Assembly: GCF_036588685.1 (NCBI RefSeq)
Contig: NC_086374.1
Coordinates: 10,726,001 to 10,790,000 of the forward strand
Length of the DNA: 64,000 nt
Direction of reading: 5' to 3'
Source of the DNA: Mytilus trossulus
Lineage: Eukaryota
In this document: one piece after another, positions 9,811 through 44,194 of the stretch
How positions within the stretch are numbered: position 1 is the stretch's first letter
How the letters are laid out: every line of letters begins with the position of its first letter
Program-made: the position numbers and the translations under genes
The notes under the pieces: model-generated
Databases searched by the model: none
What the model was told of the DNA's origin: nothing
The model's input: only the letters and a program-made list of their open reading frames with translations

Positions 9811-12800
9811 CTGAAATGATAAAAATCTTTGTAAAGGCATAAATTTTATAACTACTTTGTGTACTTATCATCTTATATCAATATAACAAAACAACACACA
9901 AAGAGTGAGGCAGAAAAAAAATGAACTGTTGTATGTAATTTTGACAACCTATTAATATGGGTCCCTCTTAGGTCAACTGAACACCCAAATTCACAATTTT
10001 CAAAACATATTTTAATGTTAAAGAGGGGAATTCGGTGACCGACTTGTCTGAATTTCTTCGAAACAATAATCTGTCAAAACCTTGCAAAATTGAAGTGGTG
10101 TTGTCTCATATCTTCAAATTCTTCATTAACGGCGAAATTTACTTTGCACGTCTGATAATTAGCCAAGTTTATTTCTTTATTCGGATGAGGTAAACTCATG
10201 ATAAGTGTTTCTTATGAAAACGACAATAGCTACCAGCATTGTCAACTTGACATTTTGTGTATACTATTAGGTGAAGCCAAAGTTACACATCGATTACTTT
10301 AGTTCGTGGTATTCCTGGAGTTTTATTTGTTATAGAATTGGAACCGCTTGCATTTTACCAAGTTTTAAAAAAAAAGTGAAAGAAGCTGGCTTTTCTCCGT
10401 ATAAGATTTTTGTATTCTTCCATCTTGGGTAACTTCTATTAGTATTGATTTCAACCGATATTTGTGTCATTGTAAATTCACTGTCTATTCATTATTATAT
10501 AATGGTATATTTTAGTTATATTTGTAATGTCAATTTAAGCGTTTTAACAATTATGTGAAATTTCAAACCCTCGGGGGTCCATTATTTGGTGAATGTAAAT
10601 GCCTTCCATTTCTCTGCTTACTTATTGCTAAATGTAATCTACATTTGCATACATGTTTGTGTTATCATGGTTTCGATTATTTACCAACTGATGGTCCAGG
10701 ACATACAAAATGATTTAGAAATAATCAAAATAAATATAACTTAATGTTTGATGTTGATGAATTTCAATTGATTATTTTGTATTATTTCCTTCTTTTTTTC
10801 ATCTTACATAATAATAATTAGTAGCACTGACTTGATCTTTGAGAATATGAAATATATGTCCAAGTAATTTTATTATAGTTAATTAAATGAAAGTGGTTTT
10901 TTTTCTTAAACAAGTTTCACCAGAGAGAATATGCTATTCCCGATTGTGACTTACCAGCCGACGGTTGACTTGTTATGATACCATTAGAAAACCTGAAGTC
11001 ACCTTTCGCATTTGGTAACATGTATGCCCACTTAGCAAAAAAAGCAAGTCGACAAATCAGGTCTCACTACATTCAGATTCCGATCGATTATTACTTTTTT
11101 CTATCCGCTGTTTTGTCTTGATGTGAAGAATTATAATATTAGAACAATACTTTACAAAATCTTAATATGAGCCATTTAAAATGTATGGATAACGTATTAG
11201 TTTGTAACAAAAAAAATATTGCATATCCCTTTTTTTTATTTTCTTAGGATTTTTGGCATGATCACCAATGTACAATATACACATCAATGCTTCTTAATTT
11301 ACACCAAAACCTACGTACAACTCTTTTCTTACCTCGGGCTTTGCTCGTTTCATTTTATTTCCTTTCCACAGATGTTGCAAAATACAGCCATAACATATTG
11401 TTATAGCTGTCATTGGAATAAAAAACGTTGTCATGACAACTGCTAATGTAGTAGTCTTAATCCATTCTGGCCCGGGCCACTTGGGGACACAGTCTAAAAT
11501 GCCCTCATTTCCTGGACGCTCGACTACTGTTTGAAACAGGAAGAATGGTAGTGATATGCTGATTGACACTAAAAAATTAAGTAAAAGGAAAGTATTGTTA
11601 TAAGAAGAACTGTGATCATGTACACAAAGATAGGTACTCTTTTCACTACTGTATTGACCAAAGTATCTTGCAACGGAATATCACTAATCAAATACAAAAT
11701 CATAACCCCAAACACATCAAACGAATACATGACAGCTGTCATATATCTGACTTGGTACATACCGTTTCATATGTAGAAAATGATGGATTAAAGTTGGGTT
11801 TATTTCTATCTAAACCTTTCACTTGTATGACAGTAAATTAGAATTAATGAATGCATTTAAATTCTTTAAATTAGAACTTTTTTGTTATGTCAATCTTTCC
11901 TAATTCCATTAAACTGGTCGTTATTATTTTTTACCTATTCAAAGATTGTATCTCATCTGCAATTATATCACATATTTTTCTTTCGTTTCTATTAATGTAA
12001 ATATGATACTGTTATACGAGAAAAACAATATTTACAAAAATAAACAAAACTGCACACTTTTGCTATATTCCGACCAATACTTCAATACTTAGTGAATGGT
12101 GAAACTATTGCTACATACCTAACCATACATCAAAACAAATGATTAATGAAACTTTGGAAACATACGTGCTCATATACTTCAAGGCTTATGAATAATAAAT
12201 ATTTTGTCACACATCCATTTATAATTCAAGGCTAATCACAAATTAAACTTTGCCGAAATACCTTCTCATACTTCAAGGGTAATACATGATGAAAGTTTGG
12301 CTACAAACCTGCTTATACTGAAAGACTATATGGTAATTATACTTTTGCTACTCAACTACCCATACTTTAAGGCTAATGAAAGATGTAACATTTTCTACAT
12401 TTCTGTCCATACTGCATGATTGATAAATGATGCAATCTTGGCAACACACATTCAGTATTTAATACCAAACTAATAAATCAAACCTTGGCTACATACCTTA
12501 CCATACTCGTATCTAATAAATCAAACCTTGGCAATATACCTTCCCATACTCCTGGCTAATAAATCATACTTTGGCTACAAACCTTCCCATACTCCTGGCT
12601 AATAAATCATACTTTGGCTACAAACCTTTCCATACTCCTGGCTAATAAATCAAACCTTGACTACATACCTTTCCATACTCCTGGCTAGTTAATCAAACCT
12701 TGGCTATATACCTTTACATACTCCTGGCTAATAAAACAAATATTGGCTACATACCTTTCCATACTCCTGGCTAATAAATCAAACATTGGCTACATACCTT

Positions 12801-15800
12801 TCCATACTACTGGCTCAAAAATCCAACCTTGGCTACATACCTTTCCATACTCCTGGCTAATAAATTAAACCTTGGCTACATACCTTTCCATACTCCTGGC
12901 TAATAAATCAAACCTTGGCTACAAACCTTTCCATACTCCTGGCTAATAAACCAAGTCTTGGCTACATACCTTTCCATACTCCTGGCTAATAAATCAAACC
13001 TTGGCTACATACCTTTCCTTACTCCTGGCTTATAAATCAAACCTTGGCTTCATACTTTTCCATACTCCTGGCTAATAAAACAAACCTTGGGTACATACCT
13101 TTCCATACTCCTGGCTAAACCAAGTATTGGCTACATTCATTAGATATAGGAAGATGTGGTGTGAGTGCCAATGAGACAACTCTCCATCCAAATAATAATT
13201 TAAACAGTAAACCATTATAGGTTAAAGTACGGCCTTCAACACGGAGCCTTGGCTCACACCGAACAACAAGCTATAAAGGGCCCCAAAATTACTAGTGTAA
13301 AACCATTCAAACGGGAAAACCAACGGTCTAATCTATATAAACAAAACGAGAAATGAGAAACACGTATATATTACATAAACAAACGACAACTACTGTACAT
13401 CAGATTCCTGACTTAGGACAGGTGCAAACATTTGCAGCGGGATTTAACGTTTTAATGGATCCAAACCTTCTCCCTTTTTCTGAAACAATAGCATAACATC
13501 ACAACATAGAACAACATACGATAAAATATCGATTGGCAGACTTATGTTCATACTCCTTGCTAATAAATTTAAGATTTGCTACATACCTGCCCATACCCAA
13601 ATATGAATAAATGAAACATTGACCAGACCCCTGTCGATACTTTAAGGCTAGTGAAGAATGAAAAACGTTTGCCAGATACATGTATCTACCCATACCTTTA
13701 GTCTAATAAATGACGTAACTTTTGCTACATACCTGCCCATACTCCTAGGCTAATAAATGATGAAACTTTTGCTACGTACCTGCCCATACTCCTAGGCTAA
13801 TAAATGATGAAACTTTAGCAGATCTCCAGTTCATAGATCGTATTGGATTGACTATCGCATGGTATCTATCTATTGTCATGGCCGACAATGTTAAACAAGT
13901 TGCATGTAAAGGCACCTGTAAAATGTTTTAAAGTACATCATAGCCACAAAAATAACATTATTAAAAAAATCTTTTTGAATGGCTTAAGCTTGCGTCAACA
14001 ATTTTAGGTTTATAAATTACGACATGTATAAAATACATTACAAAAATACTGAACTAAGAGGAAAATTAAAAATGGAAAGTTTCTAATCAAATGACAAAAT
14101 CAAATGATAAAACACATAAAACGAATGGACAATAATTGTTATATTCCTGACTTGGTACAGACATTTTCAAAAAATGTAAACAATAGTGAATTGAACCTGG
14201 TTTGATAGCGATAAACCTCTCAATTGTATGACAGTCGCATCAAAATTCATTATATTTACAACAATGCGTGAACAAAAAAAACCATGATGATCGTAATAGG
14301 TAACATATTAAAACTTAATATTTTCAAATTATAAATATATATTTGCATGAACAAGATTTTATTTATTTTAAACAGCTACTGTTTGTCATTTGTTGTCGAC
14401 TGTAACTTTGCTATAATATTTGAACGTTTTCTGCCTGTACACAGGACAATTAATCTTGATTAGCCTTATGTTATAAAATGAACTCGATATCAAATACTTC
14501 ACTTATTTGATTCGATATAATTTCGACATCTTACTTAATGTAATGTCACTAAGAAGCACAGAAGGATGAGAGTGAAACCATTAGGATTCCTTTTATGTTA
14601 TATGTTCAGGAATGATATGTTTGATCGGATAGAAGTCTATTAGACGAAGTAGAAATAAATCCAACAAACCGATTTATCTTATTACACGTAATACTTAATA
14701 AATCAGAAGGGATTTGTGAGAGAAACAAATTAAAAAGTGAACATTCACACAATTTATATAATTACAAAGTCCTATTTTTGTCGCAGTAGAGTTGTCGTAG
14801 TAAGCGTGCCGTGGAAATAATATTTCTTGGATTTTATAAACATGAACATGTAGAATATTAATCATCTTTGCTGGAAAAAAAACCATGCTGATTGAAAAAA
14901 GCAAAACGACCACAACATACAAATAGTGTTCTTTATACGATGAAAAATAGTAAAATCTGTCAACTTTTATGTAATTAAATTTTTTTTTTTTAAAGTGTCG
15001 AAAAATTGAAAGGGAACTAGCTACGAGACATATACAAAAACTCCAATAATACATTTTTTTTGTTCCATCATTAATGAAAATGTAGAACTGAAATAATTTT
15101 TCGCTTTGAGCAGGCAGTTCAGTCATTTTTTTGTCAAAATAAGCTTAAAACCATTATGATCAATTATTCACTAGCAAGTGAACAATTTGACCTCATTGAA
15201 TCCGTATTGATTTGAAATTCAATGTGACCCCTTAGCCAAAGATGAATAACGCTTGAGTTATCCCTGTAAAGTTATTTAAAGGAAATGAATTTCAACATTG
15301 AAAGTGAAACAAATTTAAATAATTTTATTGACTGATTCGATCCACACAAATTAATTCGTATACAGGAAAAAAGATGAACATATATTTTCAATCTTTACTA
15401 TGAAACTAAACAGACCTATAAAAATCTAATTTCATGAGTTGCTAAATCTATTTATATCTATTTCTATGTAAATATCGCTGATATATTGACCGGGGTTGTT
15501 CAGGGGTCCACTTGATGGTTACTTAGAGGGCGTCTCGATGAAAACACATACGGAACGAAACTACAAATTATTGAGCTCATGACTTGAAAACTGTTTATTT
15601 AAGAGAAACAGTAGGTGGGATAAATTTTTATATTGTTATGAGTCGAATCGAAGAACATAAATTTGATAGCTAGTGCCCCTTAAATATAACCCAAATAGAC
15701 ATAAAAGGTAAATGTGAAGGTAGTAGGGATTCAACTACCAAAACTGTGTTAGGATAACCATTGACATTAAACATAACAGATTAAAAGATTTCTACTAACA

Positions 15801-18042
15801 AAAGCAAAAAATAAAAAAATGCCATGAAATGTTTTTGAAGATAACAGTAAATTTTACTAAGACACTAACAATATTTTTGTTTAAACTAGGCTGTTTCGCT
15901 CACCTGCAACTTAAACAATGGCAAAGATTTTGATAATACTGACTTATTTGTAGATCGAATTGAAGTTTATTGGGGGGGGGGGGGGGGCAATAGACGTGCT
16001 GATCTAAGTCGTGAATATATCTGAATTATTTGTACACTGCAAGACGAGTGTTTATAAATAGATGTTTTGACCTTGATCGAAGAAGTCGATTCAACAAACC
16101 TCGTTTGAAACTAACATAATGTTCAATAGTAGTGCATCTATTGTAATTTTGAAGCATATATGACGTGAAAATAAAACAAAAAGGCCGTTTTTTAACAACA
16201 ACTTAACAACAAATGTTAACGCCAAAACAAAGTGACGACTGCATATTAAACAGATATCATATTCCTTTTCATTTTCGACATTAAAGGAAGGAATACCATT
16301 TCAGCAGAGTTGTTGATTATTGCGAACATATTATCGTAAAAGTAATAGCGCTGTCACAACAGTTTATTAATTTTACCTTGGATGATTTGTAATGAATGTC
16401 GTCAATGCTTTACGACAATACAAAATCCGTTCGTGGTTATACAACTTTAATGTTTGTACTTTTGTGTGACCTTTAGTGACGACTCTGTATGATGCAAAAC
16501 GAAATCCTTTGATTTATATTCAGTTAACAGAAAAGAAAAACGATCAAAGGAACTCTTCAAATGATATAAATAACTTGATAATAGAATTACAATGTAATCA
16601 GAGATAAAAAAAACAAAAAAAAAAAAAACAAGAGTAACACCTAAACAGGGATCAATATAAAGATTGAAAAAGGTAGGAAGCCCAGAATTCACACAGAACA
16701 GTATCGTCACTCACCCATCCAGAGTGAAAAGACGTATTACAACATTTTCCTGGCTTTAAGTTTGGCAGTTAAGTTCCCGAACAAGGAAAGGACGTCAACT
16801 TAAAAGCCGCGATTAGGTGAACGGGTATAATATCTATTTATGAAGGAATACCTGCAATGTGTATATTTACAATATACAATTATGGCCCGCTGAGGAGTTG
16901 TCATGTCGAGTACGGGTTATTCAATGAGGGCTTTAGTCGGGGAGAATCAGTTACTCGGGTTGGCAATTTTGGGTAATCACCGACTCAATGGGTCATAATT
17001 GTTTTATTATACTGAACGAACAGTTTCAGTCTAAAGTACAATACAGATTGCCAAACACTTACGTTAAAAGCCTATTTTGGATCTATTGATATTTCGCGTA
17101 TCATACTATGTGCAACAAAGCTAGACTCTTTCTGTACTATATAGATGGCCCTTAAAAGGGCTGTTTACAAGAGAATAATCATGCCTGTAATATTTGTTCT
17201 ACCTATTCGGAATAACTTGAAAAGTTGAGGACACTCTTTAAAATCAACACACTTTAACATAATTAGGGTTAGTAGTTCCCAGTCAGGTTCAGCAACACGA
17301 ATATCACGATTAAGTAAGCAACATATACTCCATGACTGGGCGGATGCTAACATGATATCCTCAGTTCTGTGTAAGGTATATAATCCTTCCAACAACCTCT
17401 TTGCACTAAACATTTTTTTTAAATACCTATCTCATATACGATTTTCTACGGTCATTTTTTAAGAATGTTTATGTATTTAAAAAAAAAAAAATTCTAACGA
17501 TTGTGTACATATATAAGTTCGGGAAAAAGGAACTACATGTCATTTCGTTTAAAATACGAAGAAAGAAATTTTTTTACAAAGTTCAAGGGCTTTCAACCTA
17601 AAACGGGCTTTTCAAGATGAACCTAAGTTTATTGATTGATTTTTTTAAATATAAATATCTGACATATATCATATTTTATTGATTGATTTTTTTAACTATT
17701 AAAATATCTTACATATATCATATAAGTTGACAGTTTGCAGACCGCATCTCCTAGAATCCAGGTAGGTATAACTATATGAATCAATGTTGCAGGTACAACA
17801 AATATAATAAACATCAAATCAGCGATGGCAAGGTTAATGACGTATACGTTGGTTACAGAGCGTTCGCCGAATCGAAACAATATATAAAGTACAAGGCCGT
17901 TGCCAATGGCACCTGTAACTATAATCAGACTCCAAACTGAGCTGACCAGTACCACAGCTTCAATTGGTAACGGTTGTTGTATTTTAGAGTCATTTCCAGT
18001 TGTCATTAAGATGGTGCTTATATTCTCTGTAACAGTTTCCAT
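9382..18042 (-). CDS. Class A neuropeptide GPCR, kisspeptin receptor (KISS1R/GPR54)-like; join(17713-18042,13780-13915,11333-11568,9382-9810), 376 aa
   Basis: Four exons join in frame over GT-AG introns (330+136+236+429=1131 nt). Motifs: TM1 GAIGN, TM2 NLAIADL, ECL1 W-ILGDAVCK, TM3 HATCLTLSAMTIDRY, ECL2 Cys, TM6 CWFP, TM7 HTLSYANSCVNPFVY, and N-terminal N-glycosylation sequons NIS and NDS. The TM3 ATC motif and intron positions resemble KISS1R more than galanin/allatostatin-A receptors. Confidence 0.9.
11333..11568 (-). CDS. GPCR coding exon 3 (TM4-ECL2-TM5-ICL3), 236 nt
   Basis: Acceptor TTTTTTAG|TG; (V)SISISLPFFLFQ...DCVPKW...FFIPMTAITICY...AKPE; donor GAG|GTAAGA (phase 0). Confidence 0.92.
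11736..11833 (-). ncRNA. Degenerate type-P5 twister ribozyme (family B) in GPCR intron 2
   Basis: P5 CUGUCAUA/UAUGACAG, L1 AAGGU, UAAUCC, L4 UACCAAGU; P4 is partly broken. Confidence 0.5.
13141..13540 (-). mobile_element. Short non-coding interspersed element (family D): twister ribozyme followed by a shared 3' tail
   Basis: Interrupts the minisatellite. Ends in TTGTCTCATTGGCACTCACACCACATCTTCC, a tail also seen near 7320, 25930, 33455, 38060, 51261, 54417 and 60432. Confidence 0.8.
13400..13483 (-). ncRNA. Type-P5 twister ribozyme (family D)
   Basis: UCAGA-AAAA-GGGA-GAAGG-...-AAA-UCCC-GCU-[GCAAA UG UUUGC]-A-CCUG-UCCUAAGU-CAGG-AA-UCUGA: P5, P2, P3 and P4 all pair, and pseudoknot T1 is AGG:CCU. 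Predicted cut is between 13445 and 13444. Confidence 0.8.
13780..13915 (-). CDS. GPCR coding exon 2 (TM3-DRY-TM4), 136 nt; not in the ORF track
   Basis: Acceptor TTTTACAG|GTG; translates VPLHATCLTLSAMTIDRYHAIVNPIRSMNWRSAKVSSFISLGVWA; donor CAG|GTACGT (phase 1). Confidence 0.92.
14136..14234 (-). ncRNA. Degenerate type-P5 twister (family B) in GPCR intron 1
   Basis: UGUCAUA...GAGAGGU...AAACCAGGUUCAAUUCAC...GUCUG UACCAAGU CAGG A AUAUAACA. Confidence 0.55.
15011..15680. mobile_element. Non-autonomous DNA transposon, Kolobok-like
   Basis: Imperfect TIRs AGGGAACTAGCTA / TAGCTAGTGCCCCT with TTAA-like flanks (TGAA, TAAA). Confidence 0.55.
16876..17002. mobile_element. Decayed terminal hairpin of a hairpin-ended element
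   Basis: Arms ACAATTATGGCCC / GGGTCATAATTGT; centre GAGGGCTTTAGTCGGG. Confidence 0.55.
17713..18042 (-). CDS. GPCR coding exon 1 (N-terminus to start of TM3)
   Basis: METVTENIS...CKLSTYMIY, then donor TAT|GTAAGA (phase 0). An acceptor TTTAG lies 6 nt upstream of the ATG (18049-18050). Confidence 0.92.
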
Positions 18043-19099
18043 ATTGACCTAAACATATAATAAAGATAATTTATTCAGATTTGAATAAGACAAAGATATA
18101 TAGTAACACTTAAGTTTCCTTATTTTTTTGACAGAGATACATTCTGAGTTCTCATTATGAGTTTTCATATGTCTTGTCGTCATTATTTCCGTTTTTATTT
18201 ATTTTAGAATCTTGCACTTGAGCCAGACCTTTGATTTTATATGTTATTGTTTACTGACTGTACGTTGCCCTCTTAAGGTCTTTTGGTTAATCGTCGTAAG
18301 CTTACAACTAACAAAGACATTCCCAAAGTCTTTTCGTAAGCCACAAGATTTGCTAGTGAGAGCTAATTTATCCTGTTTTCCAGATTTTATCTTTGGTTTT
18401 CATGGATTTCATGGGCCAAATTAATGATGCACTTTTTCTTAGCCATTTGTTTAATGTCATTCGATTTCCTTTGGTGATGCTCGATAAGTTTTCGATGTGT
18501 TTACAAGATTCGAACATCATTAAGATATTGTGGAATTTCTTGTTCATTGACAGATTTCAAGAAATATAATTATGAAAGCTGTGTGTGTTTTGTGTACATT
18601 GAAAGGTATAATATTGGACATATATAAAAGTATAGGCAATCATTACTTTTCATGTGAAGTTGAATTTTTATGAATCATGTTATAAAGTATGATCGATACT
18701 GAATACGAAAATATATTAACAACAGCATTTGAAAGCTTGATAATTATTTATCGATTGTGATTTCAATTAAGAAGAAAACATAAAAATAAAGTGATTGAAT
18801 TTAATTTTCTCTCAAATGATAACCTCTCCAATTGAGCATACAAGGAATGTTATATCTTTTGTCCTATCATTTCCATAGAAATTATAGCAGTTTATTAGGA
18901 AAATTGCGTCAGAATAATACTCATGTCAGATCTACGTGGGCTACAATGTCTTGCAACAAATGTGCTCCCCTATTGTATCAATTTTGTTGACTAAAATAGT
19001 TATGTGTAATGACAAATATATGTTTGCATAAAATAAATGACGGGGAAAAACAAACCACATGTTTTCAGATATTTTATATAATTATTTTATTTCAAAAAA

Positions 19100-34964: not shown

Positions 34965-35300
34965 TGATTTTTTAAGTTAAAAAAAACTTAAATCACGATA
35001 GATATCAACTTTTAATGATAGTAAGAAACTTTGTTGTAAAACATACAAATTAATGTTTTTCTTCCTTTAATTGTCAATTTTAATGACTTGTCGAGACGCT
35101 GTAAGATTGTTTAATCGATTTAATTGGCATCTTTATACTATTTGATTAAGGATTCAGCGTTGTATTCAAGTAAAGATAATTAAGTGTGACATGCTGTACA
35201 TAATGTGCAGGTTTCATATAACTATCAATTTTGTTCACTTACTTTAACAATTGTAGTACTTACTTTTATACTTTACTTTTACACTTCTAGTACTTACTTT
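34965..35300. repeat. Local direct duplication, second copy at about 40545-40890
   Basis: Shared TCGAGACGCT.TAAGATT..TTAATCGATTTAATT.GCATCTTTATA and TTGTATTCAAGTA.AGATAATTAAGTGTGACATG; both copies lead into the 21-bp minisatellite. Confidence 0.85.
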
Positions 35301-36240
35301 TACACTTTACTTTTACACTTGTAGTACTTACTTTTATACTTGTAGTACTTACTTTTATACTTGTAGTTTTAACAATTGTCCTTGTAGTGTTGATTATTGC
35401 CCTTGTAGTACTTACTTTTCCTTTGTAGTACTAACTATTGTCCGTGTAGTTCTTACTGTTGCCCTGGTAATACTACTTATTTTCCTTGTAGCACTTTCTA
35501 TTGCACATGCAATAATAACTATTGCCCTTGAAGTACTTATTATTGCCCTTGTATACTCATTATTGCCTTTGAAGTAGTTGCTGTTGTCTATGTTATATTG
35601 ACTATTTCCCTTGTGGTACTTTCCATTAGACCTCAGTCATCATTTTTTATTTAAAAAATGTACACAATATTTCACTATTTTCTTCAAATTGCAAGCTTTG
35701 AACTATTGGACCTCGGTGAAACTATTTGACCGCAACCGTCATCATATTTCTCGAAATTTCAAATGCAGCTACGAGATTGGCTAATTTTGAGAATGCCGCG
35801 GGGGTTACAACGTAGAGTGTTACCTCTTGTTACTAGGGATAACGTAGCTTTACTTTTCAGAATATATATGAATGTAAACTTGACACAATATGATTGTATT
35901 TCTGCTCTTTATATTACGATAGTTGATTTATCCCCGACATTTATTTTCTGATATCTATTTCGGTATAATAAAACACTTGCTTACTGGATATTTGTGAAAT
36001 AGTCAGTTTATTGTCCCCTCGGATACAATATTTCCCCATGGCTACGCCTCAGGGCAATACTAGTTACACCACGGGGACATTAAACGGACTATTTCACTCT
36101 TATCCAGTCAATAAGTATACACTATTGCCCTTGTTGTACTTATGTTTGCCCCTGTAGAACATACTACTACCCTTGTAGAACACACTATTTCCCTTGCATA
36201 ACACATTATTTCCCTTGTAGAACATACTAATTCCCTTTTG
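35250..36240. repeat. 21-bp minisatellite interrupted by a hairpin-ended element
   Basis: Unit TTGTAGTACTTACTATTGCCC at 35250-35630 and 36115-36240. Confidence 0.85.
35640..36112. mobile_element. Hairpin-ended element (Crypton-like)
   Basis: Hairpin at 35983-36108 with centre GGCTACGCCTC; GATTGGCT motif inside. It splits the minisatellite; the left boundary is approximate. Confidence 0.65.
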
Positions 36241-43912: not shown

Positions 43913-44194
43913 TTGCGTTCAATATCGTAGCGGCTACATATGGCTACGTACATTTATGACTATTTGTAACTAGCCTAGAGGCTAAATAGTACTAATAGCA
44001 TATAAGCTAGCTACTCGTTAAGTAGATAAAAATCTACGTAGCACTATATTGCGTTCAATATCGTAGCGGCTACATATGGCTAAGTACATTTATGACTATT
44101 TGTAACTAGCCTAGAGGCTACATAGTATTAATAGCATATAAGCTAGCTACTCGTTAAGTAGATAAAAATCTACGTAGCACTATATTGAACGCAA
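43913..44194. mobile_element. MITE duplicated in tandem (136-bp period)
   Basis: TIR TTGCGTTCAATAT / ATATTGAACGCAA; near-identical units start at 43913 and 44049. Confidence 0.85.

Follow-up and report, generated by a model that had tools for sequence, protein, structure and literature searches.

A boundary-spanning donor minisatellite in a KISS1R-like receptor gene of the mussel Mytilus trossulus

Some minisatellites begin inside an exon and carry copies of its 5' splice site (donor) into the intron. In intervening sequence 7 (IVS7) of human F7, the first monomer of a 37-bp variable number tandem repeat (VNTR) spans the exon-intron boundary, and the monomers that follow carry further copies of the donor into the intron (Borensztajn et al. 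2006, PMC1557585). A copy can function in F7 once the sites upstream of it are mutated, but splicing otherwise relies on the most upstream donor alone. Copies improved as far as a consensus value of 91 failed to compete, and splicing was identical with 1-6 or 8-12 monomers (PMC1557585). The cited papers are represented here by excerpts, and what is said of them refers to those excerpts. An array of this known type, seen before in a few human genes, is described here from a mollusc. It lies in a receptor gene within a 64,000-nucleotide (nt) stretch of the mussel Mytilus trossulus (contig NC_086374.1, positions 10,726,001 to 10,790,000), which is called the window below and in which all positions are numbered.

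Other arrays of this kind differ in whether their spare donors, or pseudo-sites, are used. Intron 2 of the human interferon-inducible gene 6-16 (IFI6) contains 25 pseudo-sites, and two of them are used besides the authentic donor. The IVS13 minisatellite of human CBS has 15-20 monomers, with two pseudo-sites used, and for the LAMIN B2 and PDGF arrays the excerpts report use of none (PMC1557585). The mussel array is like those of 6-16 and CBS in bearing donors and in its size. More generally, tandem repeats at exon-intron boundaries can alter splicing (De Grassi and Ciccarelli 2009, PMC2812944). The cases in the excerpts of that paper are located within primate segmental duplications and give rise to introns or protein repeats; neither a new intron nor a protein repeat is seen in the mussel.

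As in F7, the first unit of the mussel array spans the authentic boundary, and the copies follow head to tail in the sense direction; these are the structural features of a boundary-spanning donor minisatellite of the F7 IVS7 type. The composition is different. The F7 unit has 4 exon and 33 intron nt, comes in 5-9 identical copies, and has had its splicing tested (PMC1557585). The mussel unit has 37 exon and 10 intron nt and comes in 29 copies of at least three age classes, with periods of 47 and 43 nt and an inserted repeat among them, and 8/29 of the copied donors are dead. The literature searched, which lacks most subscription journals, yielded no account of an array like this in Mytilus.

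The array consists of a source unit (A0) and its 29 copies, 30 units running from 13816 to 12061, as delimited by ungapped scanning and alignment (Table 1). Tandem Repeats Finder reports a 43-nt array at 12470-13118 (15.1 copies) and a 47-nt array at 13699-13816 (2.5 copies). One copy is near-perfect (A1), 12 are old or degenerate (A2-A5, B1-B8), and 16 are homogenised 43-nt units (Y1-Y16). A first-pass annotation, made from the sequence alone, had described the unit as the end of exon 2 plus the start of the intron, with an intact donor in many units, and both descriptions hold. Its division into 38 and 9 nt differs from the one used here by the ambiguity of phase in a tandem repeat. The GT is intact in 21/29 copies and AG/GTATGT (the slash marks the exon end) in 12/29, and the exact string GGAGTATGGAAAG/GTATGT occurs six times. 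The window contains the string AGGTATGT 13 times, and 12 of these occurrences belong to the array; shuffled sequences contain it 2.26 +/- 1.54 times, and 0/100 of them reach 13.

The weak old units are genuine, because the eight that align without gaps match A1 at 28-36 of 47 positions and 0/62,053 background positions reach 27. Mean pairwise identity is 88.4% among the 14 inner 43-nt units and 58.4% among the 8 ungapped 47-nt units, so the old 47-nt layer and the young, homogenised 43-nt layer that had been noticed at first sight are both real. Within the window, the repeat unit is found in the array intron only. A 20-nt unit pattern had no match in genome and viral contig collections, which is expected for an animal intron and uninformative. 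A metagenome scan with the exon-2 frame, covering 42/64 parts, found at least one locus with 46% identity, not an orthologue. Rfam gave no match at E<=0.1 for 11300-14100.

Table 1. Positions of the array units, the host-gene exons and associated features within the window.
Feature	Position	Strand	Remarks
Coding exon 1	18042-17713	-	KISS1R-like rhodopsin-family G-protein-coupled receptor
Exon-1 donor unit	17723-17675	-	49 nt; 11 exon + 38 intron nt; TAT/GTAAGA
Tandem copy of exon-1 donor unit	17674-17628	-	47 nt; weaker TAT/GTCAGA; exon-end equivalent 17664
Coding exon 2	13915-13780	-	transmembrane helix (TM) 3, DRY motif, TM4 start; authentic donor CAG/GTACGT at 13780/13779
A0, source unit	13816-13770	-	boundary-spanning, 47 nt; last 37 exon nt + first 10 intron nt
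A1, youngest copy	13769-13723	-	46/47 identical to A0; donor CAG/GTATGT, exon-end equivalent 13733
A2-A4, old units	13722-13577	-	A2 and A3 without GT; A4 (44 nt) retains CAG/GTATGT at 13587
A5	13576-13534	-	43-nt type; last ~10 nt may belong to inserted repeat
High-copy dispersed repeat inside array	13141 to ~13543	.	~400 nt; end near 13543 approximate
Y1-Y16, homogenised units	13131-12444	-	16 units of 43 nt; GT in 15/16; AAG/GTATGT in 9
B1-B8, old units	12439-12061	-	8 units of 47-49 nt; GT in 4/8
Coding exon 3	11568-11333	-	acceptor 11569/11568; donor without duplication
Coding exon 4	9810-9382	-	TM6-TM7, C-tail, stop

The host gene lies on the minus strand and has four coding exons, and every intron is of the GT-AG type. 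Its exon boundaries are fixed by the product, since the spliced protein of 376 amino acids is identical at 376/376 positions to M. trossulus XP_063419743.1 (P0046). RefSeq labels that protein 'galanin receptor type 1-like'. All four exons match the Pfam family 7tm_1 above its cut-off, and among solved structures exon 1 matches the KiSS-1 receptor best (E=1.6e-14). In a midpoint-rooted tree of 29/78 fetched proteins, which carry automatic labels and include no vertebrate galanin receptors, the host protein stands with receptors labelled GPR54/KISS1R, apart from arthropod allatostatin-A receptors (split 100/100). In the same 29-protein tree it is one of at least three paralogues in Mytilus. Judged by its sequence, the gene is a KISS1R/GPR54-like receptor of the rhodopsin family, with a putative kisspeptin-type ligand.

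The array intron had been called intron 2. This is right for the coding region and probably wrong for the whole gene, because an upstream exon is implied. The isoform P0045 begins MVNMETV, and the window shows AG/GTCAAT directly before the ATG (18043-18050, minus strand); together these imply an upstream exon with an alternative ATG.

Evidence for the direction of copying is provided by the receptor itself. The codons that were copied specify the first part of TM4 (KVSSFISLGVWA), and 14/15 aligned relatives, which include bivalves and a sea urchin, have a corresponding segment that retains the tryptophan; the sole exception, P0002, is a partial model without exon 2. Because the codons encode a conserved TM4 start, the exon is the ancestral partner of the repeat, which bears out the derivation from exon end and donor that had been proposed for it.

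The opposite explanation is a transposon-borne or genome-wide satellite that merely resembles the exon end, or an artefact of assembly. A high-copy repeat does sit inside the array, and bivalve non-autonomous elements often carry tandem arrays. The conserved codons and the absence of the unit from the rest of the window speak against such an origin, and so does sequencing depth. Sequencing runs were compared over 13125-18100, with the Y block, the B units and exons 3-4 lying outside; of the 24 listed runs, two of 18 DNA-type runs (X2, X16) and two of six RNA runs (X19, X20; shares of 0.08-0.09 in all six) were used. Depth over 13623-13788 is single-copy in both DNA runs (18.2 and 15.8), against about 1e6 on the insert. 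Old units are also found in another organism, and the units differ among themselves. The satellite or artefact explanation is thereby largely refuted and barely credible.

The history of the array can be read in part from its units. The old units have changes that the exon lacks: T at position -14 in 7/8, and no G at -12 in 8/8, a change that would read Glu for Gly. The 43-nt consensus is nearer to the present exon end than to the old consensus (alignment score 61 vs 55), and it has a 3-nt deletion in common with A4. The inserted repeat has a summed contig depth of about 1e6 compared with 10-40 on the exons, and 11 further blastn matches in the window; in public contigs it stops sharply at 13141. 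Unit A5 was probably cut by its insertion. A target-site duplication of the insert was considered and is not claimed: ATGAA is found on both sides, but this assignment leaves the unit 6 nt short.

Two other individuals appear to carry different parts of this history. In X16, from organism D, a contig piece of depth 23.8 ends at 13543 and 13721, with ends taken from the distance column, and among the differences listed it has 14 between 13577 and 13689. A second piece of the same depth ends at 13777. The depth of 15.8 for the bin 13623-13788 compares with the 15.9 that 111/166 covered bases would give. These observations suggest that the old units are common to a related organism and that A1 and the insertion seem to be absent there. 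In X2, from organism B, whose sequence is about 99% like that of the window, a contig breaks off at 13787, after the first 30 nt of the unit that is duplicated. A1 thus seems to be present in a second individual, although heterozygosity could also break the contig; the word length of that assembly, presumably 31 letters, would explain a break at this point. Short-read contigs cannot count array copies.

From these features, at least three episodes can be inferred. The first 47-nt duplication added its copy within the intron and would have been tolerated for that reason, and the resulting 47-nt array would then have expanded and aged. A 43-nt derivative would have expanded later in the middle of the array. 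The dispersed repeat is seen to have been inserted; its place in this order is more tentative. Recently, the junction unit would have been duplicated again in the same 47-nt register, giving A1. Copying is likely to have occurred by slippage or unequal crossing-over.

The array is probably a harmless neutral repeat: the end of exon 2 was tandem-copied with its donor 29 times, the copies would drift without function, and the first donor would be kept in use. Donors retained as decoys or as a switch should have decayed more slowly than the rest of the unit, and harmful ones more quickly. In the old layer, comparison of eight ungapped units with A1 shows changes at 21/72 donor positions (-3 to +6; 29.2%) and 91/304 other positions (29.9%; Fisher p=1.0). 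For the GT alone, 6/16 positions are changed vs 106/360 (p=0.58). The GT is intact in 5/12 old units where 49% is expected (p=0.77), or in 5/11 without A5, whose donor the insertion may have removed. In the young layer, 7/126 donor positions and 30/476 others are changed among the 14 inner units (p=1.0). The decay tests left out the edge units Y1 and Y16 and the units with insertions or deletions (A4, A5, B6, B8), and the GT count used all 12 old units. Relative to the rest of the unit, donor positions are neither detectably kept nor detectably purged, at low power.

The donor consensus is CAG/GTAAGT. The authentic donor (CAG/GTACGT) and that of A1 (CAG/GTATGT) each agree with it at 8/9 positions, by a plain count rather than a MaxEnt score. 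The first-pass annotation had pointed to A1, whose exon-end equivalent at 13733 is 47 nt from the real donor at 13780, as the nearest copy and one that fits the consensus equally well, and it was correct on both counts. Only A1 and A4 (2/29 copies) equal the real donor, and A1 would be its most plausible competitor. Donors of the Y block agree at 5-7 of 9 positions and lie 681-1283 nt downstream of it.

Use of any copy would bring in a premature stop. Read-through past the real donor gives W-A-G-T-stop at codon 158, with the TAG at 13774-13772 on the minus strand; three downstream positions were translated. Since this TAG lies upstream of every copy, any downstream donor leads to the same stop, and the stop predicted within TM4 is borne out by the sequence. 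If A1 were used, the exon would be 47 nt longer and the stop would fall 275 nt before the last exon junction.

The +4 position of the donor shows a difference of its own. At 13776 (minus strand) the real donor has C (GTACGT), and A1, the 43-nt consensus and 6/8 old units have T. This would be explained by a T-to-C change in the real donor more recent than A1, or else by loss of a CpG from the copies. The piece of X16 contig that ends at 13777 adjoins this base.

It is possible, although unlikely, that A1 and perhaps A4 take part in splicing without being selected for it. In this case the donor at 13733 would take more than 5% of splicing, the stop at codon 158 would reduce the output of receptor from A1-bearing haplotypes, and the distal block would play no part. 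A1 equals the real donor at 8/9 and has the same 37 nt upstream of it, and the stop would lie within reach of nonsense-mediated decay (NMD), for which the mammalian distance rule is 50-55 nt. A1 also seems to be absent from organism D, so it would be young and selection may not have acted on it. The pseudo-sites used in 6-16 and CBS are the two proximal ones (PMC1557585). In F7 minigenes, on the other hand, raising downstream copies to a consensus value of 91 was not enough to make them compete (PMC1557585). The truncated form of about 157 amino acids was found in none of the 13 listed cluster members, of which 9/13 had their sequences viewed. The apparent presence of A1 in the second individual would further suggest that it is tolerated.

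Full-length proteins are consistent with the use of the first donor. All 7/7 full-length orthologue proteins, from five Mytilus species, read AKVSSFISLGVWA/VSISISL across this junction. The segment 13660-13860 does not fold better than shuffled sequences (z=+0.83; 166/200 shuffles fold as well). By analogy with the mammalian F7 minigenes, and in agreement with the annotated proteins, priority of the first donor is likely to apply in the mussel. Splicing would then stay on that donor, with at most a minor leak destroyed as premature-stop message.

A stronger proposal, made in the first-pass annotation, is that the array is a kept regulatory device, with copies acting as U1 decoys or as an NMD switch that becomes stronger as copies are added. 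Heat stress might open such a device. Donor-like sites (at least 7/9) are about ten times denser in the array, with 14 in 1725 nt against 48 in 62,100 nt elsewhere on the same strand. This density needs no selection, because it is the direct result of copying one donor. The GT is retained in 15/16 young units, and use of any downstream donor leads to a stop. There are also precedents in which spare sites or repeat length matter: in human cells, heat shock brings latent donors that lie behind stops into use (Nevo et al. 2012, PMC3510495), the 31-bp VNTR of CBS is listed as associated with homocysteine level (PMC1395315), and some human tandem repeats alter splicing with their length (PMC10078293). 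The mussel copies are like the latent sites of Nevo et al. in being unused intronic donors whose use would give a premature stop; those sites are scattered by chance through human introns, whereas the mussel sites are copies of a true donor (PMC3510495).

The comparison within the array does not support this proposal. Neither layer has an excess of retained donors, and the GT is lost in 7/12 old units. Scaling with copy number is argued against by the homogenised block, the part that expanded, since its donors are weak (at most 7/9) and distant, lie behind the 400-nt insertion, and leave only A1 and A4 to tie with the real donor. Copy number was without effect on splicing in F7 (PMC1557585). 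A kept switch or decoy is therefore regarded as very unlikely.

Each unit could alternatively supply a micro-exon. This would be either TTTATTAG/CCAGGAGTATGGAAAG/GT, of 16 nt and frameshifting, or CAG/GAGTATGGAAAG/GT, of 12 nt and in frame, which would add GVWK in TM4. Most young units have the necessary AG and GT, and 10/18 nt before the TAG are pyrimidines, compared with 11-15 at the three real acceptors. The distance to the next AG upstream is 12 nt for the TAG and 2 nt for the CAG, vs >38 nt at 2/3 real acceptors and 14 nt at the third. The same AG sits inside the real exon, and the insert is missing from all 7 orthologue proteins. Micro-exons are extremely improbable, and both this reading and one by recursive splicing were rejected for weak acceptor context.

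Several points weigh against the neutral interpretation. The donor of A1 matches the consensus as well as the real one and is only 47 nt away. The retention test is weak, because among 12 old units only >=10 or <=2 intact GTs would stand out (p ~0.02 each), and the units in the decay tests share ancestry. Mild retention of GT in the young units is possible; it is intact in 15/16 of them, and 15/15 has a probability of 0.15 under neutral decay. The annotated proteins are models and would miss forms degraded by NMD. The RNA runs X19 and X20 cover dispersed repeats only, with zero depth on coding exons 1 and 2, and are uninformative on splicing. Precedent can be found on this side as well, in the two pseudo-sites used besides the authentic donors of 6-16 and CBS (PMC1557585), in the latent donors behind stops that open under heat shock (PMC3510495) and in the listed link between the CBS VNTR and homocysteine level (PMC1395315).

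A further point is that another donor of the same gene is duplicated. The exon-1 donor is followed by a tandem copy (Table 1), so that 2/3 coding donors of the host gene carry copies of about 48 nt. If the exon-1 copy were used, it would lead to a stop at codon 117. One contig of X2 spans this duplication with five differences and one gap. A downstream copy of this kind is found at 28/2418 other window positions, which gives a chance of 2.3% at one of the other two donors and 5.7% at one of the other five junctions; both figures are post hoc. The second duplication is thus unlikely by background and only suggestive.

Taken further, the duplications could mean that donors are hot spots which re-seed self-copies of about 48 nt, as at 2/3 donors here and more than once at the exon-2 donor. 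Young copies would then act as premature-stop switches, opened by heat and differing between haplotypes, through which an intertidal mussel tunes a kisspeptin-type receptor. This is a speculative extension, and its being correct is very improbable.

Some observations on the gene and the window stand apart from the array. Codon 112 (13910-13912, minus strand) is Pro (YVPLHAT) in the host paralogue, which is common to all 7 Mytilus orthologue proteins; at this position, the start of TM3, Thr is found in 14/14 other aligned relatives having exon 2. In the M. galloprovincialis models P0002 (VDI33189.1) and P0054 (VDI33188.1), coding exon 2 is missing together with part of exon 3, and unrelated residues stand in their place, which is likely a gene-prediction or assembly problem around the array intron. 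Elsewhere in the window, degenerate 21-nt arrays with higher periods of 34, 55 and 125 nt lie at 35239-35627 and 36119-36237, unrelated to the donor array, and a 136-nt tandem duplication of two copies with 97% matches lies at 43913-44187.

As most likely read, the array is of little importance, being one more boundary-spanning minisatellite. If the heat-switch reading were true, the dose of a reproduction-type neuropeptide receptor under heat stress would depend on a length polymorphism in an intron, and this in a group of species that are farmed and that hybridise. The array has a modest value as a natural test of whether selection keeps or removes spare donors, because its source unit is fixed by protein coding and its copies come in three ages; here neither is detectable. 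With a donor that ties the real one at 47 nt, A1 also makes the array well suited to asking whether a mollusc follows the first-donor rule shown in mammalian F7 minigenes.

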